A stretch of DNA of 64,000 nucleotides from a virus, in UHGV virus genome UHGV-0179428. One strand, given 5' to 3'. The translations under genes were made by a program, and so were the position numbers. This document shows positions 5,576 to 43,097 of this stretch, one piece after another (position 1 is the stretch's first letter; every line of letters begins with the position of its first letter). The notes below the pieces were generated by a model. That model saw nothing but the letters and a program-made list of their open reading frames with translations, made no database searches and was not told the DNA's origin.

Positions 5576-6427
5576 CGCCAGGTCTGCTTCTTTTACAAAG
5601 ATACCGTCGGCGTTCAGGTAACCTTTACGGTCTTTGATTTCGTGCCAGGCCAAAGAGAAACAATGACGAATGTCCAGTTTGTAATACAAGGCGATACGAG
5701 CAAGATGAGCTAAACCCAGGCTAACGAAATCGAAACCATGATCTTTGCCTTCCATAAAGGTTGTGGCAAAACTTTCAATAGCGTGAAGGTATTGTTGATG
5801 TGGGTATCCAGCGTTGTTTAAATTTTCTTCAACCTCAGCTACATCTTCCACGTTTAAGCGTAGACCAGACTCGATGCAGTCTTCTGCCACTGTAAGGTGA
5901 CCAGAATACGCATCCCCTAATTCGATTATGTTTACCAGAACCACCAACGCATCACCAATACCATCCATGATCAAATCAGGTTTGTTTTTACTGATACCCG
6001 CCGCAATTTCACCTAACTCTTCAAAGAACTTCGTGATTTGGGTTTCCAGTTTACCGTTATCGAGAATACCACGTTCTTTAGACCAACCTTTAACGAGTTT
6101 TACACATTTTGCGATCGTGCAAACTAGAACAGATTCTGTATGCATTACCGTGCCGTTGTAAACAGCATCGGTAAGCTTAATAGGCGCTACAATTGTTTCG
6201 ATGTCCAGTTCTTGATTACCGGTGTGGCGTTTACCTTCTACACGAATACGGTTGGTACCGGGGTTTACACCAATTGTGTAAATAGCATCGAACTGTACTG
6301 CATTCTCATTCAAAGCGCGCAGTTGTGCGTTAACTTCTTCCAGGTGCTGACCAGGATTAACTACGATGTTGTAAATAGTGTTGATGTCAAAACGTTCGCC
6401 CATTTTAAACTCCATTAGATTAAACAA
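5570..6427 (-). CDS. MazG-like nucleoside triphosphate pyrophosphohydrolase with N-terminal extension
   Basis: Motif FFEELGEIAAGI...DGIGDALVVLVNIIELGDA resembles the MazG/HisE EExxE...D metal-binding helix pair; second helical half near the C-terminus. Track start is TTG; an in-frame ATG with GGAG lies a few codons downstream. Confidence 0.5.
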   Translation of the reverse strand: MFNLMEFKMGERFDINTIYNIVVNPGQHLEEVNAQLRALNENAVQFDAIYTIGVNPGTNRIRVEGKRHTGNQELDIETIVAPIKLTDAVYNGTVMHTESVLVCTIAKCVKLVKGWSKERGILDNGKLETQITKFFEELGEIAAGISKNKPDLIMDGIGDALVVLVNIIELGDAYSGHLTVAEDCIESGLRLNVEDVAEVEENLNNAGYPHQQYLHAIESFATTFMEGKDHGFDFVSLGLAHLARIALYYKLDIRHCFSLAWHEIKDRKGYLNADGIFVKEADLAK

Positions 6428-6471
6428 AAGGAATAATGATTAGGGGTGCTACATAAGCACCCCAGGAACTG

Positions 6472-6615
6472 TTAAATTTTGCAAGCCCCGCCTGAGCAGT
6501 TATCGTCTTCCGTGGTCGGGTCGGCTCCTTTCTCTACGGTCGCTTCCGGGTCTAAGCCAGGGATTGCAAATTCATCAGTTTCTTTAACGGCTTCTACTTT
6601 AACTTCTTCAGTCAT
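6472..6615 (-). CDS. Small acidic protein (47 aa), not in ORF track
   Basis: ATG-initiated ORF MTEEVKVEAVKETDEFAIPGLDPEATVEKGADPTTEDDNCSGGACKI on the strand shared by all neighbours; weak RBS. Preferred over the antisense + ORF 6479..6700. Confidence 0.3.
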   Translation of the reverse strand: MTEEVKVEAVKETDEFAIPGLDPEATVEKGADPTTEDDNCSGGACKI

Positions 6616-6658
6616 TTTAGTTTCCAAATTTCTTACAAAGGGGTTAACAGTTTTGATT

Positions 6659-6841
6659 TTAAGGTTGGCGAATGTGAGACAGAAGCAGGCCCATCCGTAA
6701 TGGAACTGACGCGGTCATTGCCCTTTTATATTGCACAGTGCGTACTTTCGATTTACCAGGTCCCTTACGTACACGGTTGTAGCCAATAAAATATAGAGTA
6801 CCTGTAAAGAATCTGAGGTTATGAAAATATGGCTTCTTCAT
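6659..6841 (-). CDS. Small basic protein (60 aa), member of R-x-x-K-G-P-x-K family
   Basis: ORF; motif YNRVRKGPGKSKVRTVQY shared with two neighbouring small ORFs. Confidence 0.45.
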   Translation of the reverse strand: MKKPYFHNLRFFTGTLYFIGYNRVRKGPGKSKVRTVQYKRAMTASVPLRMGLLLSHIRQP

Positions 6842-7023
6842 TGTTCCTCCTTCTCGAATGGGTTAGATTCAAGGAACTTGGAATAATCAAATTGAATTAC
6901 TTGGAAACGTTTACGTCCTTTACGTGGCCCTTTGCACCAGCGCGTAACAATGGTACGGAACTTCTTCGGCTCGAAATACGTTATCGTGAAATTAAGAACA
7001 TCGTCTAACATATTACCCCCCAT
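6838..7023 (-). CDS. Small basic protein (61 aa), member of R-x-x-K-G-P-x-K family
   Basis: ORF; motif VTRWCKGPRKGRKRFQVIQF; overlaps stop/start with the downstream paralog. Confidence 0.45.
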   Translation of the reverse strand: MGGNMLDDVLNFTITYFEPKKFRTIVTRWCKGPRKGRKRFQVIQFDYSKFLESNPFEKEEQ

Positions 7024-7031
7024 AGTTCACC

Positions 7032-7421
7032 TTAATCGGTGTGCAAAGTGAGATAATTACTTTCAAAATCGAAAGTTTCGATTAGTCTTTGCAATTTTTC
7101 CAACGTGCGCTGTTTCCAGTCGTCTCGTGGCGTAGGCTGATCCAATTCTTCAATATATTGTTTAAAGGCGGTAAGTTGTTCTTTATTGATTGCGAACTCA
7201 CTGCTACCGCATACCGTCGTTATATTGAATTCGGATTTAAGTTTGTTAAATGCGTTCCAACAAAACGACAGCCTTTCCGTCCACATTAATTCACCCTGAT
7301 CGAATATTTCTCCGAGTATGTCGTCAACATGATCGACGTAATATTGGTGCTCCCAAGCCTGACGCACGGATTCTTTTACAGCGGATTTTGAGTATGAATA
7401 AACGTAGATATCGATTGACAT
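7032..7421 (-). CDS. Hypothetical protein (129 aa)
   Basis: ORF in the leftward operon; no recognisable motif. Confidence 0.5.
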   Translation of the reverse strand: MSIDIYVYSYSKSAVKESVRQAWEHQYYVDHVDDILGEIFDQGELMWTERLSFCWNAFNKLKSEFNITTVCGSSEFAINKEQLTAFKQYIEELDQPTPRDDWKQRTLEKLQRLIETFDFESNYLTLHTD

Positions 7422-27917: not shown

Positions 27918-28376
27918 TCAGTACAAACACGATGTCAAGTATTGGTTATACGAATCGAGCAGCGCCTGACGGTCGGAACGGTAATTCCACAACAAATTAT
28001 TGAGTTTACGCGATAAATCACGGCTAATCTCCTGGGCCGTTAAAGAGCTCTCATCAAGAGACAAGCGTTCAGGTACAACGTGTAATTTCGGTAACTCATA
28101 GCGTTCACAAAGTGGAGCCAACATTGGTGGACTCCAGCCACGTTTAACGGCTTGCTGGTTTAAATTTCGAGTGTAGACATAAACGTAATAAGCATAGGTG
28201 TTGACATCTGCAACATACTCACGCATTGCATTCTTGTCAATTTTCCAATTCACCATTATTGGTGGTTCAGGAGGAAGTTCCAGTGGTCTATAAGCTGGAC
28301 GTTTAACTTCGTCACCGTAGCTATTACTCACCAACCCCACGAACACTACCATGATGAATAATAGCATTTTCATCAA
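27918..28376 (-). CDS. Secreted proline-rich protein with signal peptide (152 aa)
   Basis: N-terminal MMKMLLFIMVVFVGLVSNSYG-DEV signal peptide; Pro-rich mature N-terminus; no lipobox Cys. Confidence 0.5.
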   Translation of the reverse strand: MMKMLLFIMVVFVGLVSNSYGDEVKRPAYRPLELPPEPPIMVNWKIDKNAMREYVADVNTYAYYVYVYTRNLNQQAVKRGWSPPMLAPLCERYELPKLHVVPERLSLDESSLTAQEISRDLSRKLNNLLWNYRSDRQALLDSYNQYLTSCLY

Positions 28377-33091: not shown

Positions 33092-33601
33092 TTAGAAGAA
33101 CGGCTGATTTGGAATGACAGCGTACTCTAAAATGAACATGTGCTCTGGGGCGTCTTCTTTACGCCAGACTTTGTGTGTTATCACAAGTTTTTCCAGAATC
33201 GTTAGAAAACTACGCTGGCAGTATGTGTTTTCGCCAAGTAGCAGTTTCTGAAGTTCTACAGTAGCGTCCATATACGCCTGTTTAAAGACTAAGCTACGGT
33301 TATACTGTCCAGTAAAATTCCAAAGCAAGACTTTCCCTTCTTCGGTTTCTTTTACCGTTGGTCGTAAACCACAAATCCACAGCAAGGCAAGGTTGACGTT
33401 CCAGTCAAACTCTAAACCTTCTTCTTCGTCATCACCGAATGCTGTAGGTAAAGCATCGTAAAATTCGTGCTTCTCTGCGAACTCTTCATCCGATTTAATC
33501 TCGTCTTCGATGCTGCTTCGGACGATACCGTAAATGTCTTTCGCGGTTAGCTGTGCGGCCTTTGTAATGCCTTTATACCAATCGGTTACAACGATGCTCA
33601 A
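33092..33601 (-). CDS. Hypothetical protein (169 aa)
   Basis: ORF. Confidence 0.5.
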   Translation of the reverse strand: MSIVVTDWYKGITKAAQLTAKDIYGIVRSSIEDEIKSDEEFAEKHEFYDALPTAFGDDEEEGLEFDWNVNLALLWICGLRPTVKETEEGKVLLWNFTGQYNRSLVFKQAYMDATVELQKLLLGENTYCQRSFLTILEKLVITHKVWRKEDAPEHMFILEYAVIPNQPFF

Positions 33602-34323
33602 AGGGTAACTCCTCTATCGGTTGGAAAACTCATGTTTATTGTATCCCAAATTTTACTAACTTCCGCCAATTGAATCTGACGTGATGTTTTCTTCGCAAAC
33701 GCAAGCTGACGTGGGGCCGAGCCCACAACAACAGGCACATCGATTTTCGCGCTATAGAACGCGGCATCTTTCATAAAGCCTGCCATTTCTCGTTGTGCTG
33801 CTCGAGATTTGCTTTTGATTCGCGTGTGAGCGCCACTTTCACCCCAGTGGTAAGCTAACGCAACTTCAGCCATGGTGGGCTTGCGTTTGAGTCGTTTGGT
33901 TAACCCCTTCTCAAGATGTTTAACATACGCGGTAGCCAGCAAAACAGCGTTACGCGGATTATACAAATCGGTGTTCTGACTAAGACCTAATTCTTTTCCA
34001 TAAAGCTTTAGCAGATTGCGCTTGGTACTTGGAAGCATCTGTACCAGGCTGTGCGCTCGTGTGCTTTTGTTGTAAGCCTTGGGATCAAAACGTGATTCGC
34101 GATAAATCAGCGTAATCATCAGTTTAGGATCAACGCCTTGTTTTCGTGAGATTTCCACAATTAACGGACTGACTTTTTCGAACCGATGTTGGATTTGTGT
34201 AAACTCACGCTGATGCTTAGAATGTGGCGTTGACGTTGACGCCTGTGCGTTAAACGCGAAAAGTGTTACCAGTAAAAGAAAGAAGATACGAAACATTTTG
34301 TTTCTCCAGTTGGATTTATACAT
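33598..34323 (-). CDS. Secreted lytic transglycosylase (SLT domain) with signal peptide; candidate endolysin
   Basis: Signal-like MFRIFFLLLVTLFAFNAQA; SLT motifs YRESRFDPKAY...AHSLVQMLPST and YNPRNAVLLATAYVKHL. Confidence 0.6.
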   Translation of the reverse strand: MYKSNWRNKMFRIFFLLLVTLFAFNAQASTSTPHSKHQREFTQIQHRFEKVSPLIVEISRKQGVDPKLMITLIYRESRFDPKAYNKSTRAHSLVQMLPSTKRNLLKLYGKELGLSQNTDLYNPRNAVLLATAYVKHLEKGLTKRLKRKPTMAEVALAYHWGESGAHTRIKSKSRAAQREMAGFMKDAAFYSAKIDVPVVVGSAPRQLAFAKKTSRQIQLAEVSKIWDTINMSFPTDRGVTL

Positions 34324-34396: not shown

Positions 34397-34957
34397 CTAT
34401 TTAAAAGAGTTTGGAATTAATGACTCTGCTTCTCGATACAACCTATCGGGTAAGTATAACGTGTAGTGTTGCCTCCTCGGTTCAAGTTTTTTGTAAAGCC
34501 ACAAGAAGATTTCTTGTCTTTCCCAGGAATCTAACCACCCATTTGCCATTCCCAGTGGAGGGATAGCAACGCTGGTATCCAGCTCCTCAACACAATCTGC
34601 TAATGCGGTAATGCCCGCAGTAACATAAGAAACCTGGGACTTTAAACGCCAATGTGTTTTCGTTGGGAGCAAGATGCACTTTTCATCAGGGTAAACGTAA
34701 ACGCTTCCAATCTTAATTTCGTCTTCACGACACCGCTTACGGTAATCTTGATATAGGTTGGGGTAGCGTTCACGGCACGCCAGCGCAATACCGCGGCCCA
34801 TTGCTCCTACACAGTTAATGGTAACGACTTTATAGTCTTCGGGCGCATTAAAAAGATCGCTACCAATTTCAGATTCTTTACGTACCGTTAACATAACGAA
34901 TCGGCCGCAGTTGATGTGTAGTATTAAAACGTGTACCGCCGATTGATAACTCGACAA
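34397..34957 (-). CDS. Macrodomain protein of the TARG1/DarG-like type (ADP-ribose glycohydrolase candidate)
   Basis: Motif GSDLFNAPEDYKVVTINCVGAMGRGIALACRERYP resembles the DLF...MG-x-GIA core of TARG1/DarG macrodomains. Real start probably the internal MLTVRKE. Confidence 0.45.
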   Translation of the reverse strand: MSSYQSAVHVLILHINCGRFVMLTVRKESEIGSDLFNAPEDYKVVTINCVGAMGRGIALACRERYPNLYQDYRKRCREDEIKIGSVYVYPDEKCILLPTKTHWRLKSQVSYVTAGITALADCVEELDTSVAIPPLGMANGWLDSWERQEIFLWLYKKLEPRRQHYTLYLPDRLYREAESLIPNSFK

Positions 34958-36574: not shown

Positions 36575-39062
36575 TTTTTACTCCTTCGTTATACACCGCA
36601 GGCAATGTCACCCCTTCCGGTTCGATGACACAGTACGATGCTTCATTAAGTTTAGAATGAACCTCGGCTTCGTGGGAGACTACCAACAGTTGAGAAAATT
36701 CTCCCGAGTTTGCTAACGTTTTAATAAAGCCGACCAGGTTGTTACGGTGCTCCTCATCCATACCTTCCGAAGGCTCATCCAAAAGCAATGGAAACTGATG
36801 CAACTTCAGCGCTTTGTACGCGGTCAGCCTGAACATCAGATTAAATATCGCACGCTGCGCCTTAGACCCTTTACGCACGTCAGGAACAGGCTCAGGATGC
36901 GTTTTTAGCTGGACAGGAAAAGTATAATCCAAATCACCGTCAGTGAGATCGCAAGGCATGACGCGCATGGGGTACGTCCAGACCTGTTCGATATAACGCG
37001 TCATTAACTCTGTGATTCTAACGATAGCGTTGTAAAAATACTTTCTAAGCACACCCTTTTCTGGCGAGAAGGCTTGAATCATCAGTTTGTTATTGAACTG
37101 CTGGGCTTGCAAGTCAGCAAGTTCGCGTTCCAAACTGTTGAGCTGATTCAATTCATTTTCCATCTGACGATAACGTTCGCGTGCGGTTGTAAAAGCATCC
37201 AGCTTCCCTTCTCGTGCACGTAAGAGTTCCTCGACGACTGTATTTGTCAACGTAACCTTAACATCACTCTCTAACCGTTCGAATAACGCACTGAAATCAT
37301 CTACAGCACGTTTAACATTCACCAGATAGGTAAGTGTCGTGTTAGCCAGTTCGTGCTCTCTACGACGCATTGAGAGCATCTCTGTGGCTTTACCTAATCG
37401 CGACTGTTGGAAAGCGATTTTCTGTTGTAAAGCACCATCGACGTTACCAACGGCCGCTACGGCATCCTGCCATTCTTTTTCCGCTTTCACTAACCGTTGT
37501 CGGGTTTCATGGTACTCAATAGCAGAGTACAACTCACTGTCAAACGCTGCGCATAGGCTCCCGAACTGCTCGCGTGATTCTGTGAAAACGTTACGTTCTT
37601 GCAAACGCTTAAAGAACATGCTCAATACCGGGTCCTTTGAATACGTCAGTACAATCTCACGAACCTGTCGCATATAAGTTACATCGGATTCTAACTCAAC
37701 ACGATCGCGTAATAGGGCCTCTAACTGCGTTTGTAGTTCCGTGCGCTGCTGTTGTTGTCCGCGAATCGAAGACTCAAGTTCAGGTAAAGAACGTGTAACA
37801 CCAGGCCGAAACTTAAACCGACACTGCGGACAATCCACTTCTGCTGTTTCTAAGTAGTGATTACGCTCATGATTTAAATTCTGTAAAACGTTCTCCACTC
37901 GCTGGAGTCTATCCCGCAACCCTGCGGTTTTTTGATCCATCACCAGAAGCCGTTCTTCCAAAACATTGAGTTTTTCGGTTGAATGAATTGCGTCCAGTGT
38001 TGTTCCTAACCGTTGCCCCCAGACACGCGCATCGGTAGCCGCACGAAGTTGGTCTAAATTGACGTTGTCGTTAAATAGACCCGGAAAGAGATGCTCGGTG
38101 TCCCATTTGGTAAGTAACTCACGTAAACGTGCCAGCGTATTCTTGAGACCTTCGTGATTCCGCATCAGGTAGTCTTGTCGTGTCGACTCATCCATTAATA
38201 ACGACAAGTCTTTATTCAACATCGATACCTCTGTTTCAGTAGAAACAACAGCTTCGCGGGCGGTCGCTTCGTTTTGTCGCGCGACCAGTATCTGTTCATC
38301 AGTAGGCAATCCACCACGATGTTGTAATATTGCGTCGATGGTTGGACCCAAGCTGTTTAATAACGCTTGGATTGTTTCGATGGTGACGGCACGATTTAAT
38401 CCTGGCAACTGTTCGATTTCTCGGTTCAGTTCACGTAAATCCGATTCCAAACCTTTTAATCTCGTCGCTAACTGCTGCCGTTCTTCCTCGTTCTCAATAA
38501 CGCGCGTCCGTAATTCGGCGATCTTACGGCTGGTGATTTCAATACCCCCATTTAAAGCAGTAAGGTTTTTACGCAAACGTTGATAAAACCCTAACGCGTA
38601 AGTGAGGTCAGAGGTACTTAAACGGTAAAACCACTTGCGGCGTAGTTCGGTTCCCGCGTCAGTTAACAACACCTCACCATTTAATAGTTCTTTAATCTCT
38701 TTCGTAATACCCGTGATTTCTTCAACACGGGAGTTGTAGACTTTCGCATTACCTTGCTCGACGATCTTTGTCCCCGTGGTCAAGTTCTCAATATCACAAA
38801 CCAGTGAGTTGCCTTTACGGGCAACTTTGAATCGATAGCGTTGATCGCCAACTAAACAGTAGTTTGTGTAAGAACCTCCGTCCCTGAATTCGGTTTTAGC
38901 CGGTGCTAAGGGTAAGAACACAGACAGTAGACTGGTTTTCCCGCAGCCGTTCCCACCCAGGATAATTGTTGTCGGTGACTGGATAGTGAAATCGAAGGTT
39001 TCAATTTCATGTAACCCCATCCCCGTAAAACCTTTGAGTATAATGCGTTCAACTTTTAGCAT
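36558..39062 (-). CDS. Rad50/SbcC-like coiled-coil ABC ATPase with zinc-hook CxxC
   Basis: Start moved to the ATG at 39062 (GGAGGTGGGT upstream). Walker A GGNGCGKTSLL, long helical middle with CPQC, Walker B/D-loop LLLDEPSEGMDEE, H-loop VVSHE. Confidence 0.65.
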   Translation of the reverse strand: MLKVERIILKGFTGMGLHEIETFDFTIQSPTTIILGGNGCGKTSLLSVFLPLAPAKTEFRDGGSYTNYCLVGDQRYRFKVARKGNSLVCDIENLTTGTKIVEQGNAKVYNSRVEEITGITKEIKELLNGEVLLTDAGTELRRKWFYRLSTSDLTYALGFYQRLRKNLTALNGGIEITSRKIAELRTRVIENEEERQQLATRLKGLESDLRELNREIEQLPGLNRAVTIETIQALLNSLGPTIDAILQHRGGLPTDEQILVARQNEATAREAVVSTETEVSMLNKDLSLLMDESTRQDYLMRNHEGLKNTLARLRELLTKWDTEHLFPGLFNDNVNLDQLRAATDARVWGQRLGTTLDAIHSTEKLNVLEERLLVMDQKTAGLRDRLQRVENVLQNLNHERNHYLETAEVDCPQCRFKFRPGVTRSLPELESSIRGQQQQRTELQTQLEALLRDRVELESDVTYMRQVREIVLTYSKDPVLSMFFKRLQERNVFTESREQFGSLCAAFDSELYSAIEYHETRQRLVKAEKEWQDAVAAVGNVDGALQQKIAFQQSRLGKATEMLSMRRREHELANTTLTYLVNVKRAVDDFSALFERLESDVKVTLTNTVVEELLRAREGKLDAFTTARERYRQMENELNQLNSLERELADLQAQQFNNKLMIQAFSPEKGVLRKYFYNAIVRITELMTRYIEQVWTYPMRVMPCDLTDGDLDYTFPVQLKTHPEPVPDVRKGSKAQRAIFNLMFRLTAYKALKLHQFPLLLDEPSEGMDEEHRNNLVGFIKTLANSGEFSQLLVVSHEAEVHSKLNEASYCVIEPEGVTLPAVYNEGVKIVYAN

Positions 39063-39142: not shown

Positions 39143-39751
39143 TTATTTGGTGTAGAGGTGATAACCCATTGAAGTCCAATAATCGACGTTCTTCGTGTTT
39201 TCTACCCAAACCTGTCCCGCCTTTGTGGCTAAGACTTCCATTGTCAATGTACAGATCAGATTTGTTACCGGGATACAATTTCCAGGTGTAACATCATCCA
39301 GATAAACCGGGTATAAAAACGGCGATTTAATGGATTGGTACGGGTAAGAATAGTGGCTACCGACCTTCCACCCTTCTTCTACAGGACAGAGATTAAAAGT
39401 GCGTGTTTCAGGAACTGCGTTTTCAGAGATCCAGTTAACAACATCGGCTTTAATTCGATCGTGGTCGATATAGTAGAACACAACACGTTGTGGGATACTT
39501 GTGGTACCAGCCGGGTCTAAAGCCTCCAACGCCTTAAAAGGCGACGTTAACAATGTTGTACTGTTCTCAAGCGCGTAAACCAACTTTTCGTAAGCAGTCG
39601 GTGTTTTACGTTTAAAATATTCCCGTAAGCGAGGGTATGCCAGGAATCCCTCTACTTCTTCTTCCATTAAGTCAATGAATAAAGGCGTATGCGAAAAACG
39701 CTCTGCATTTTGCATCGCTTCAAGAAAACGAACTAATGTAATTTCGTTCAT
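39143..39751 (-). CDS. Hypothetical protein (202 aa)
   Basis: ORF. Confidence 0.5.
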   Translation of the reverse strand: MNEITLVRFLEAMQNAERFSHTPLFIDLMEEEVEGFLAYPRLREYFKRKTPTAYEKLVYALENSTTLLTSPFKALEALDPAGTTSIPQRVVFYYIDHDRIKADVVNWISENAVPETRTFNLCPVEEGWKVGSHYSYPYQSIKSPFLYPVYLDDVTPGNCIPVTNLICTLTMEVLATKAGQVWVENTKNVDYWTSMGYHLYTK

Positions 39752-40310: not shown

Positions 40311-40340
40311 CGTAAAAAGGACCCCGGACGTACCGGGGTC
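40311..40340 (-). terminator. Candidate terminator hairpin (GACCCCGG / CCGGGGTC)
   Basis: 8-bp GC stem with short T-run on the minus strand after 40351..40740. Confidence 0.4.
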
Positions 40341-40350
40341 AAGACTACAC

Positions 40351-40740
40351 TCAATGATCTAATTCAATAGCACCAGCCATCTTGCCCCGTTCTTCGATAA
40401 CGATCAGATAACGGTCGCGAGATTTGCTTTTAGCGAGAGTTAAGACAACGGTAGGGTCGCACGTTTTCGTGGTGATAGGAAGAACCTCTCTTGCGACGGA
40501 ATCGAGCAGAAAGTAATAACCTGCGGGACACATTGTGCCACCGTCAGCTTTTACCAGAATATAGCGCCCGTCTGCGCCGACTTCTTGGCAGATTGTTTCA
40601 CCGACTTCGCAAACTTCAAACCCCGGAGGATTGTACTGATAATCGGTATTGTTGTTTGGGGTTAGCAGTAAATCGTTAACTTGGGTAGATGCTGCTACAC
40701 TCAGGGAGAAGAAGAATGCTAAAACGCAGACGAGACGCAT
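40351..40740 (-). CDS. Secreted small protein with signal peptide, Cys-containing (129 aa)
   Basis: MRLVCVLAFFFSLSVAAST signal-like N-terminus; four Cys in the mature part. Confidence 0.5.
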   Translation of the reverse strand: MRLVCVLAFFFSLSVAASTQVNDLLLTPNNNTDYQYNPPGFEVCEVGETICQEVGADGRYILVKADGGTMCPAGYYFLLDSVAREVLPITTKTCDPTVVLTLAKSKSRDRYLIVIEERGKMAGAIELDH

Positions 40741-40750
40741 GAGTTACTCC

Positions 40751-41161
40751 TTAAATTTTAAGTTTATCCATAGCTACAACGATAGGTTTTTCCGAAGTGT
40801 CTAATATCCCTACCATTGGCACACCATCTACGACTTCGAAGAATGGTTTGTTATTACCAGAGCACAGACGTTTGTCGTTGTATTCGAGACGCTGGGCCTT
40901 CCACGTTTCGAGGTTGAGTACGGACATTGGGCTGTCGTAGCACCAGGCACCACCCTGCTCAACGATGAATACGTATCTGCTACCTTTGTATTTAAACAGA
41001 CTCTTTGCCTGACAGTACAAGCCGTCGATTTCCGTACAATAGAAATCATCGGTGCTATTGACGTACTTAATATTGTCTGGCAACTGTATTGTTTTTGCTG
41101 TAGTGTTGACAGAGAATAGAACAGCCATTGCAATGAGGAGAGTATTAATGATAGTTTTCAT
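40751..41161 (-). CDS. Secreted small protein with signal peptide, Cys-containing (136 aa)
   Basis: MKTIINTLLIAMAVLFSVNTTA signal-like N-terminus; several Cys. Confidence 0.5.
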   Translation of the reverse strand: MKTIINTLLIAMAVLFSVNTTAKTIQLPDNIKYVNSTDDFYCTEIDGLYCQAKSLFKYKGSRYVFIVEQGGAWCYDSPMSVLNLETWKAQRLEYNDKRLCSGNNKPFFEVVDGVPMVGILDTSEKPIVVAMDKLKI

Positions 41162-41172
41162 GATAAAAGTCC

Positions 41173-41658
41173 TTAGTATTTAGATTGTTCTACGTACTTC
41201 TTAACCAGGTAAGCGAATTCGGCAACACCGATATCACCGAACCAAATCAGATAACCGGGGTCGATGTTGTAGTAATAGCCGACGAGTTTCTTGGTGTGTG
41301 GGTTGTATAGCGTTACGATGTATTCCCAACCACAAGCGTTAGCTTTACAACCGCCACTTTCAATCCAGATTTTGTTGTTGATGTTTACCGGATACATGTT
41401 ACCGCCAGGGCCATCCATGTAACCTTTAGAGCCGAACATACCATCCAGCCCCACAGGGTCTAATGTTTTATCAACAACGGCTTTAAACGACTTATCGGTA
41501 TCGTACAAGTCGTTGATGTTTGGGCACGCATTTGGCTGACCTTCCCAAGCGTTTCCATCACAGGTAAGCAGTTCGTCTACGGAGGCCGCATCTACACTTG
41601 GTGTGGCACCGATAAACAAGAAAACCAGAAAGAACATCAGTGTGTGTAAACGTTTCAT
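41173..41658 (-). CDS. Secreted small protein with signal peptide (161 aa)
   Basis: MKRLHTLMFFLVFLFIGATPSVDAA signal-like N-terminus; Cys pairs. Confidence 0.5.
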   Translation of the reverse strand: MKRLHTLMFFLVFLFIGATPSVDAASVDELLTCDGNAWEGQPNACPNINDLYDTDKSFKAVVDKTLDPVGLDGMFGSKGYMDGPGGNMYPVNINNKIWIESGGCKANACGWEYIVTLYNPHTKKLVGYYYNIDPGYLIWFGDIGVAEFAYLVKKYVEQSKY

Positions 41659-41676
41659 TGTAACTACTCCTTTAGA

Positions 41677-42069
41677 TTATTCGGCAGGACGATTTAAGGT
41701 AACGCGTCCGATTAATTCGGCGTTGTGAAAGAAGTCCACAGCGGTATAGTTACCAACTGATAGCGGATGGATACTAACTGACATTACCTTTGGTTGTTCG
41801 CAAGCGATATCCGTCAGACGTTGGTAGACTTGTGCACGGGTGTCAGCAATGAGTAATCCCGTACACGTTTCACCACGCACTAAACGATAAACTTGCAGTT
41901 TACCGAAACTGCGCATTAACGTAGGCGTCTCGTCCGGGTTGATAATCGGTGAGTCAGGAGCCGGTTCGTAATAGCGGACATCCGAATCACCGAAAGCATA
42001 AGTGCCAGTAATTCCGACTGCACAGAAAATAATGATAGTATAAAGTATAGTTCTGATATTCATTTTCAC
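41677..42069 (-). CDS. Secreted small protein with signal peptide (130 aa)
   Basis: MKMNIRTILYTIIIFCAVGITGTYAFG signal-like N-terminus. Confidence 0.5.
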   Translation of the reverse strand: MKMNIRTILYTIIIFCAVGITGTYAFGDSDVRYYEPAPDSPIINPDETPTLMRSFGKLQVYRLVRGETCTGLLIADTRAQVYQRLTDIACEQPKVMSVSIHPLSVGNYTAVDFFHNAELIGRVTLNRPAE

Positions 42070-42091
42070 GCACTCTAAAAAAGATTAATAG

Positions 42092-42553
42092 TTATTTGTT
42101 AGGACGGGTGTGTCCACAGTTCTGGAAGAAAGTTTCAGACAGACGTTCGCCTTCTACGGTAAAGTTAGCGGCATCGTTACCATTGATACTCACACTGAAA
42201 GTTTTGGCATTACCGATAGCATTAACGAAAGCAACCCAAGCGTGTTCTGCTTTGTCACTACCGTCCACGGTAGGGATGTTATAGGTTTTGCCGTTTACGA
42301 CAATATCCATCGTGTTATCTTCAGCGTTAGTTGCACCTACGGGTTCACCGTAATACCAGACCATGCGACCGTAAAATTTGCGATTCGCAGTTTCAGTGTC
42401 ACAGTTGATAGACAGTCCGTTTCCGGCGGTGTCTTCAATTTCGTAAACTGCCTGGCCAGGGTTTTGTATTTGTTCCCAGCTGTTGATAGCGGCGTGTGCA
42501 GTATTGAGGCCGAAAGTTAAAATGGTTATTAAGAAAGTGATAAAGGTTTTCAT
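42092..42553 (-). CDS. Secreted small protein with signal peptide (153 aa)
   Basis: MKTFITFLITILTFGLNTAHAA signal-like N-terminus. Confidence 0.5.
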   Translation of the reverse strand: MKTFITFLITILTFGLNTAHAAINSWEQIQNPGQAVYEIEDTAGNGLSINCDTETANRKFYGRMVWYYGEPVGATNAEDNTMDIVVNGKTYNIPTVDGSDKAEHAWVAFVNAIGNAKTFSVSINGNDAANFTVEGERLSETFFQNCGHTRPNK

Positions 42554-42599: not shown

Positions 42600-42971
42600 T
42601 TAAATAACTGTGTTGGGTAATGCTTTAATCTGTGTATAACTATCTCCGATACCTCTTATCATTTCCAGACGCTCTTCTGTAGAAAGGCTTTGGTTAATGT
42701 CTTTGTCAAGATTGAACAGTGTCAAGAGTTTTGCAATTGCAACCGTCAGGTTGTCGGACAGCTCGTTGTTTTTACGCCATTCTTCGTTACGGAAAATAGA
42801 GATAAGGTCTTTCGCCTGGCCTTCAGCGTGTGGTTTGGCTAACTGCGCGTCACGCTGTTCGATAAGGTATGCTTCGTTAGTAAGTAAACGTTTCAGGTTT
42901 TCTGGGTTAGTGGCAGCGCGAGTAACGATCATTAATACAACAAACGGGTCTTTAAATAATTCGTTTTTCAT
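42600..42971 (-). CDS. Hypothetical protein (123 aa)
   Basis: ORF with AGGAG RBS. Confidence 0.5.
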   Translation of the reverse strand: MKNELFKDPFVVLMIVTRAATNPENLKRLLTNEAYLIEQRDAQLAKPHAEGQAKDLISIFRNEEWRKNNELSDNLTVAIAKLLTLFNLDKDINQSLSTEERLEMIRGIGDSYTQIKALPNTVI

Positions 42972-43063: not shown

Positions 43064-43097
43064 ACAAAAAAATAAAAGGTGGGGGTTTACCCCCACC
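43064..43097 (-). terminator. Rho-independent terminator (GGTGGGGG / CCCCCACC stem)
   Basis: 8-bp stem with TTTA loop and T-run on the minus strand after the stop of 43102..43680. Confidence 0.6.

Follow-up and report, generated by a model that had tools for sequence, protein, structure and literature searches.

To our knowledge, protein-based blocks to phage entry that act in the periplasm are known from a few cases only, such as T4 Spackle, T4 Imm and T5 Llp. Spackle inhibits the tail lysozyme gp5 in the periplasm and brings about superinfection exclusion (PMC7677548). On the bacterial side, the canonical Ivy protein protects against C-type lysozyme, and Ivy proteins have also been reported as inhibitors of lytic transglycosylases in vitro (PMC10139938). 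Ivy, the YfjT protein of Escherichia coli and the gp180–gp183 block of phage SPN3US are each already known as sequences. Here we describe a locus in which they meet: five adjacent genes, A–E, at positions 40351–42553 of a 64,000-nucleotide stretch of the virus genome UHGV-0179428 (the window, i.e. the whole stretch of DNA that was analysed). The locus joins a secreted-protein operon of SPN3US-like phages, the Ivy inhibitor family and a slot of y-genes (yfjS/yfjT) found in E. coli genomic islands, including those of O157:H7. As a tentative reading, which we favour without holding it as established, this periplasmic operon guards the envelope of the infected cell, with exclusion of competing phages at the wall-crossing step as its preferred function.

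Five adjacent genes encode predicted periplasmic proteins

The first-pass annotation of the window, made from the sequence alone, had described five adjacent leftward genes of 129–161 aa with a Sec signal at each N-terminus, multiple cysteines of the periplasmic disulfide type and no lipobox. The list of open reading frames (ORFs) gave the same coordinates, with A at 40351–40740 (129 aa), B at 40751–41161 (136 aa), C at 41173–41658 (161 aa), D at 41677–42069 (130 aa) and E at 42092–42553 (153 aa), all on the minus strand. Signal sequences were called by rule, as a charged n-region, a hydrophobic h-region and small residues at −3 and −1 with no later helix. The N-termini carry a net charge of +1 or +2 and a hydrophobic core whose best 11-residue Kyte-Doolittle mean is 2.5–3.0, and in all five a small-x-small site follows at the usual distance from the h-region: VAA or AAS in A (...SVAAS/TQ), TTA in B (...NTTA/KT), VDA in C (...SVDA/AS), TYA in D (...GTYA/FG) and AHA in E (...NTAHA/AINS). 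No later membrane helix was found in A–E (best 19-residue mean ≤1.1), nor any lipobox, the cysteines within the h-regions of A and D being preceded by V or F.

The mature parts contain four cysteines each in A, B and C and two each in D and E, which are invariant or nearly so among the orthologues, and the hydrophobic N-termini are retained in every orthologue across 11 related loci. When a crude signal-peptide rule was applied to 72 greedy ORF calls of the window, eight were positive, and the A–E run accounts for five of these eight, so that the five signal-type N-termini exceed what chance would give. On gene layout, export signals, cysteines and the lack of lipoproteins the first-pass description was borne out, and A–E are predicted to be Sec-exported, soluble periplasmic proteins, with cleavage and location deduced from these features.

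The distinction between a cleaved signal and an uncleaved anchor is least certain for D, which has a long, cysteine-containing h-region and the weakest cleavage context of the five. These properties of D would suit an explanation in which the N-termini are uncleaved anchors and the proteins are inner-membrane-tethered parts of an infection structure or minor virion proteins, as would the annotation as an inner-membrane lipoprotein of YfjS from E. coli K-12, which may be remotely related to A (hhalign probability 55%). We nevertheless consider that explanation very improbable: it sits poorly with the regular placement of the small-x-small sites in five of five proteins, and the conserved cysteine pairs fit an oxidising compartment. 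Virion components were also the contrary case raised by the first-pass annotation itself. SPN3US gp180–gp183, which include the orthologues of A, B and D, are missing from the list of 83 virion proteins identified by mass spectrometry (PMC5105663 Table S4), in which gp173 is followed by gp193, a comparison that covers the three proteins through orthologues of another phage.

Gene C encodes a divergent member of the Ivy family

The first clue to the identity of C was the resemblance of its segment ...IWIESGGCKANACGWEYIVTLYN...VGYYYNID to the Ivy loop region ...YQVMSACKPHDCGSQRIAVMWS...TGLFSTID. When a profile of C and its close homologues was compared to the PDB, the Ivy structures 1GPQ and 1XS0 ranked second and third with the loops aligned, at E=1.3 only. 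The NCBIfam Ivy model NF007443 matched C at E=1.3e-3 (18.6 bits, cut-off 180) and the Pfam Ivy family PF08816 matched the E. coli homologue of C at E=7.7e-3 (16.8 bits, cut-off 21); C itself gave no Pfam match at E≤1. A C-family profile searched against 1.84 billion representative proteins returned 56 matches at E≤1e-3, and among the aligned matches 26 of 30 hit PF08816 at E≤0.01, the best at 7.6e-12. As the transitive profile search reaches accepted Ivy-domain proteins, the homology of C to Ivy is well supported at the level of sequence.

The structural model of C is predicted to have the Ivy fold, an antiparallel sheet flanked by helices. Its conserved cysteines are C33 and C45 together with C104 and C109, the latter pair enclosing the loop CKANAC as compared to CKPHDC in canonical Ivy. 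This C-x4-C loop lies between the same two strands as in Ivy, C104-K-A-N-A-C109-G aligning with C-K-P-H-D-C-G of 1GPQ and 1XS0, and C104 and C109 are kept in at least 90% of sequences across the remote homologues. The canonical inhibitory motif CKPHDC, with the central histidine that we take to be the residue entering the lysozyme active site, is not found in C. Close relatives carry CKAHAC, CKSNAC, CKSDAC or CKANTC, and remote homologues mostly CE[AP]HNC. Within the close subfamily only the three residues of the loop tip vary (A/S, N/H/D and A/T), inside an invariant C-K...C-G-W frame, which we infer to be the pattern expected of a contact surface under diversifying pressure. No match to C was obtained in 50,697 GenBank phage genomes, and the gene is absent from seven related loci (L012–L018).

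Chromosomal counterparts of C and B, and a possible link to phage restriction

Outside the phage clade, the nearest relatives of C were found to be E. coli chromosomal proteins with 59–66% identity, the commonest of which occurs on 864 contigs. Their genes are located in CP4-type integrative islands, with dynamin-like, YjcZ/RdcB and patatin genes on one flank and DUF932, antirestriction, RadC and CbeA/CbtA genes on the other. In many strains the C-like gene is followed by a 136-aa gene whose product is 63–65% identical to B, and B is far closer to this island protein than to its positional orthologues in SPN3US or Asesino, an Erwinia phage. The pair of E. coli O157:H7, WP_000775497.1 and the next gene, encoding WP_000846711.1 (136 aa), lies in a CP4-44-type island and shows 59.5% identity to C and 63% to B; the gene order is that of the phage, the gap is about 12 nt, and the DNA aligns co-linearly. 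Over the C–B region as a whole, phage and E. coli cassette form one co-linear segment of 957 nt with 68.5% nucleotide identity. The two cassette genes have a G+C content of 48% and 41% in E. coli, as compared to 55–57% in the island genes on either side and 44.6% in the phage window. These markedly lower values suggest that the Ivy-like and B-like cassette came from outside the island and resembles phage DNA in its composition; they do not prove in which direction it moved. A match to the cassette (positions 6300–7420 of locus L020), almost always chromosomal, was obtained in 2331 of 5426 complete E. coli genomes, with at least 80% of its length covered in 1877 of them, which corresponds to a prevalence of about 35–43%.

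WP_000775497.1 (L027, 6017–6700; 227 aa), which is present in many E. coli genomes, carries a 63-residue N-terminal remnant of another secreted-protein gene. The opening of a separate secreted protein of other strains (180 aa; L003, 7098–7640) matches this remnant with 48% identity, and the remnant is followed by an entire Ivy-like gene that retains a signal sequence of its own. The protein thus looks like an in-frame fusion whose true start codon is uncertain, a point of relevance to the published two-domain model.

An effect on phage infection has been recorded for one Ivy-like protein of this type. Knock-down by CRISPR interference (CRISPRi) of Hypo_04657 in E. coli O121, a protein described as Ivy-like with the loop CKANTC instead of CKPHDC, raised both the fitness and the plating efficiency of T7 (bioRxiv 10.1101/2024.04.20.590424). 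The O157:H7 protein shares this loop, which has Thr at the third tip residue where C has Ala. It is this T7 phenotype of the E. coli homologue, together with the Spackle precedent, that leads us to favour the exclusion of rival phages as the function of the cluster.

A, B and D form a conserved core of SPN3US-like phages

D-type, B-type and A-type genes were present in all of the 11 related loci, and in each of them the block is positioned two genes upstream of an SMC gene. D corresponds to SPN3US gp180 and Asesino gp201, B to gp182 and gp203, and A to gp183 and gp204. Sequence identity to the phage orthologues is 29–31% for B, 44–50% for D (Asesino gp201 and SPFM4_00167) and 47–51% for A (51% to Asesino gp204, 47% to SPFM4_00170). 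A, with the conserved motif CPAGYYF, matched phrog_5248 at 5e-31, and D matched phrog_9424 at 1.4e-40 with a weak cross-match to the phrog_5248 of A. Each of the two was found in 53 GenBank phage records, all of them enterobacterial SPN3US-like jumbo phages and alike in their breakdown by genus (27 Erwinia, 22 Salmonella, 2 Escherichia, 1 Proteus and 1 Enterobacteria), with genomes of about 197–251 kb among those listed. The slot between D and B is variable: phages of Erskinevirus and Seoulvirus have a fourth four-cysteine gene there, hereafter G (gp181/gp202), the clade of the window has C, and the most distant loci have nothing. E is restricted to the clade of the window among the 11 loci.

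Profile comparison gave a probability of 94% for A–B and 96% for B–G, and the four cysteines line up in a single alignment; A, B and G are accordingly assigned as paralogues on sequence grounds, B being a predicted all-beta protein. The profile of D aligned co-linearly with that of A/B/G and placed both of its conserved cysteines (C69 and C90) on the third and fourth cysteines of the family, at a probability that is not significant (2.9%); D is probably a distant paralogue of A and B. A single fold or family for all five proteins was rejected, as C and E have no profile similarity to A, B, D or each other, and by these comparisons A–E represent three unrelated families rather than five novelties. 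The first-pass annotation had called five such genes in a row unusual, and this now seems overstated, because A, B and probably D are paralogues in a block that runs throughout the enterobacterial SPN3US-like phages, to which C and E are clade-specific accessories.

Several other assignments were tried for these proteins and discarded. Matches of A, B, D and E to AlgF, ATP-grasp and DUF5114 were weak and judged to be chance, as were the PDB profile matches obtained for A/B/G, D and E (VNAR, spike and ribosomal proteins, E>0.09); for a PDB match to ThreeFoil, no single stretch was above threshold. Membership of A, B and D in the YfjS_YafY family was likewise not supported, since none of 18 A/B/G members and none of 8 D members matched PF20494 at E≤10, the one link being the hhalign comparison of A with YfjS. 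A search for relatives of A and of D among 185,579 bacterial species-representative genomes found none for either protein, a weak negative as it relied on short degenerate patterns.

A and D are conserved across the lineage and found in phages only, which would suit proteins that serve the infection cycle of the phage itself, for instance in the control of lysis. The exported proteins, chiefly C, would then restrain the phage's own SLT endolysin, or host lytic transglycosylases, keeping the wall whole during the long cycle of a jumbo phage until the time of lysis. The window contains a candidate for such an endolysin at 33598–34323 (minus strand; 241 aa), with an SLT domain (Pfam E=3e-15) and an N-terminus resembling a signal or signal-arrest-release (SAR) sequence (MYKSNWRNKMFRIFFLLLVTLFAFNAQAS). 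It is probably exported independently of a holin; an exported SLT endolysin would meet the periplasmic inhibitors, and it is a possible target of C. The in vitro activity of Ivy proteins on lytic transglycosylases also agrees with this explanation, although that of E. coli Ivy has been reported as weak (PMC10139938). We judge lysis control to be unlikely, although it is the strongest of the rival explanations. Asesino and SPFM4 have annotated endolysins, yet C is missing from L012–L018 and from the GenBank phage genomes searched, so C is not a necessary partner of the endolysin, and the E. coli homologues of C reside in islands without any phage endolysin. The exclusion of competing phages is still the function that we prefer for the cluster.

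Gene E and a shared slot in CP4-type islands

Homologues of E with 75–97% identity carry the precomputed Pfam assignment PF27224, which is the YfjT family. Compared directly to YfjT of E. coli K-12, E showed 25% identity in blastp (E=1.8e-14) and an hhalign probability of 96.9%, and its cysteines C51 and C146 are both invariant in the alignment. By its homologues and by the comparison to K-12 YfjT, E is thus classified as a member of the YfjT family. A tblastn search gave no match to E in the 50,697 phage genomes.

The chromosomal setting of YfjT again leads to CP4-type islands. In an island of Yersinia rohdei (CP009787.1; L023, 8001–9014), a G-type gene whose product is 68% identical to Asesino gp202 stands directly before a YfjT gene, in the order GTPase, WYL regulator, G-type gene, YfjT, DUF932, RadC, CbeA and CbtA; the order in K-12 CP4-57 is yfjR, ypjK, yfjS, yfjT. 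Judged by sequence and gene order, the Yersinia island provides another, independent example of a secreted-protein gene common to jumbo phages and CP4-type islands. For all variable members of the cluster, namely C, the B allele, E and G, a predicted counterpart is thus present in one island slot, the one in which yfjS and yfjT lie in K-12.

The island neighbors invite a different explanation for the variable genes. DUF932, antirestriction, RadC and CbeA/CbtA genes are typical of transfer-associated regions, and B, C, E and the gp202 type could serve mobile-element housekeeping, either as entry or surface exclusion of conjugative or mobilisable DNA or, in keeping with the protection that canonical Ivy gives against C-type lysozyme, as defence against animal lysozyme; in the phage they would simply be passengers, or "moron" genes. 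This appears distinctly improbable to us, as a strictly lytic jumbo phage would gain little from the exclusion of conjugation or from resistance to vertebrate lysozyme, the loop histidine is not conserved in the C subfamily, and the one phenotype on record concerns phage T7.

Genomic context and organization of the transcription unit

The genome that carries the locus is assigned to an uncultivated enterobacterial jumbo phage of about 225 kb in the SPN3US/Erskinevirus lineage. The neighboring SbcC/SMC-type protein of 833 aa shares 71% identity with gp207 of Erwinia phage Asesino and about 59% with the proteins of SPN3US-type Salmonella phages. A nucleotide search of the region against the 50,697 GenBank phage genomes gave no matches, and the clade is represented by metagenomic contigs only: IMG/VR holds one contig of 225 kb with an identical A protein and three more relatives (107–225 kb) with A proteins of 80–98% identity. 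Homologues of E and B (P0021 and P0044) are filed under Salmonella enterica assemblies on contigs of 223–226 kb, which are whole jumbo-phage genomes inside bacterial assemblies. This hints at Salmonella as a host of the uncultivated clade, or at carrier-state contamination.

Genes A–E are consecutive and co-directional with intergenic gaps of 10–22 nt. Four of the five have a ribosome-binding site of AGGAG/AAGGA type and an ATG start; the start codon of D is GTG, with an ATG two codons further on. Just upstream of E lies an ORF of 123 aa (42600–42971, minus strand) without a signal sequence and without a Pfam match. Among close relatives it is present in L008 and not in L009–L011; it seems to have been inserted or lost recently, and its functional membership in the unit is doubtful. 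Two terminator-like hairpins on the same strand putatively bracket a transcription unit made up of the 123-aa gene and E, D, C, B and A. One, at 43078–43097, is located upstream of the unit (GGTGGGGG-TAAA-CCCCCACC followed by TTTTATTTTT), and the other, of the form GACCCCGG-loop-CCGGGGTC and then CTTTTT, lies at 40320–40340, 10 nt past the A stop codon, and is a consensus match only. A scan for sigma-70 promoters found sites no more frequently than in shuffled sequence and none on the coding strand. SPN3US-like phages use their own RNA polymerases.

Some further genes of the window were noted in passing. When the SMC/SbcC gene is called as its longest ORF (906 aa from a TTG at 39278), it runs into the upstream gene of 202 aa (39143–39278, minus strand), and the homology begins at an internal Met near 39059 (MLKVERIILKG...), giving a real protein of about 833 aa. 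Adjoining the endolysin candidate is a Macro-domain protein (34397–34957, minus strand; Pfam E=5e-6), in the position of gp217 of Asesino, an "Appr-1-p processing protein". Outside the cluster, a further small ORF (27918–28376, minus strand) encodes 152 aa with an N-terminus that is strongly hydrophobic and resembles a signal sequence (MMKMLLFIMVVFVGLVS), and it gave no Pfam match.

Discussion

In the reading that we tentatively prefer, the region would be an operon-like array of Sec-exported, disulfide-stabilised periplasmic proteins from a lytic jumbo phage, composed of the phage core D, B and A, which would belong to one orphan all-beta family, and the clade-specific accessories C and E. 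The exported proteins would protect the envelope of the infected cell. C could plug the active site of a peptidoglycan-cleaving enzyme with its disulfide-locked loop CKANAC, the likeliest target being the lytic transglycosylase or lysozyme by which a competing phage crosses the wall, and the secondary infection would be aborted in the way that T4 Spackle acts on gp5. A, B, D and E may likewise bind targets in the periplasm, as members of one functional class with C, and the island counterparts of C, the B allele, E and the gp202-type gene may act as host-side anti-phage factors. For C, the proposal concerns an inhibitory activity, a target and a phenotype, and it builds on the observed ORFs, N-termini, cysteines, family assignments, A–B paralogy, synteny and island homologues. 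The superinfection-exclusion or envelope role put forward in the first-pass annotation is thereby retained as the best available reading, with the Ivy-type nature of C and the raised T7 plating upon knock-down of its E. coli homologue in its favour; no mechanism could be assigned to A, B, D and E.

Several observations weigh against exclusion as the function of the cluster. C does not reach the curated Pfam and NCBIfam thresholds for Ivy, and the quality of its structural model is modest (pLDDT 63, below 50 in the loop). With Asn in place of His, the loop may have lost classical lysozyme inhibition, and the effect of E. coli Ivy on lytic transglycosylases is a weak one, as mentioned above. Hypo_04657 is linked to the O157:H7 Ivy-like gene by the loop motif only, their identity being unconfirmed by sequence. 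CRISPRi is moreover polar, so that the downstream B-like gene, alone or together with the Ivy-like gene, could account for the T7 phenotype. PADLOC-DB 2.0 gave no match at E≤0.01 for A–E, YfjS or YfjT, and A, B, D and E had no match of known function in Pfam, PHROG, NCBIfam or the PDB profile and structure searches. Finally, the conserved core proteins A and D, for which no bacterial counterpart was detected, may serve the phage's own cycle.

A doubtful step further would be to regard the cluster as a diversifying battery of periplasmic decoys or inhibitors, each directed against a different wall-breaching or entry device of rival phages and exchanged in cassette form between the jumbo phages of enterobacteria and the YfjS/YfjT slot of CP4-type islands. 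If true, this slot would be an unrecognised, widespread locus of envelope-level anti-phage immunity, present in about 35–43% of complete E. coli genomes, and A, B and D would represent a new class of periplasmic anti-phage effectors. Should Ivy-like proteins with a hypervariable loop tip indeed inhibit the wall-cutting enzymes of phages, the presence of Ivy-type proteins on mobile elements would be explained, and with it the published T7-restriction phenotype. It would also give testable candidates for phage-phage competition and for host-range barriers in phage therapy, and part of the E. coli y-ome would receive its first functional assignment. Three features appear to be undescribed in the literature that was searched: an Ivy-type protein that is encoded by a phage and has an altered, hypervariable loop, the core of secreted paralogues in SPN3US-like phages, and the sharing of cassettes between a phage operon and the CP4-type YfjS/YfjT slot.

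Among known systems, T4 Spackle resembles C by functional analogy only, as a small phage-encoded periplasmic blocker of the wall-cutting enzyme of a superinfecting phage; no sequence or fold relation was detected to Spackle, which was not among the structure-search matches. SPN3US gp180–gp183 and Asesino gp201–gp204 make up the block that is orthologous to the cluster and, like it, lies two genes upstream of the SbcC/SMC gene; they differ in having the fourth paralogue gp181/gp202 where this phage has C, and in lacking E. Of two products of uncharacterised y-genes in K-12 CP4-57, YfjT (PF27224) belongs to the same family as E, and YfjS (PF20494) is possibly a remote relative of A, with aligned cysteines and a shared G-G-x-Y-Y-x-L-x-D strand; unlike YfjS with its lipoprotein annotation, A, B and D have no lipobox and no PF20494 match. 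The closest described relatives of C are the Ivy proteins (E. coli YkfE, PDB 1GPQ and 1XS0; Pseudomonas aeruginosa Ivyp1, PDB 1UUZ; PF08816). Compared to their loop CKPHDC, C has Asn for His and Ala for Asp, and it possesses an additional N-terminal cysteine pair in the motif C...CP. Whereas Ivy is encoded by a core chromosomal gene, the gene for C is found in a lytic jumbo phage and, through its homologues, in genomic islands.

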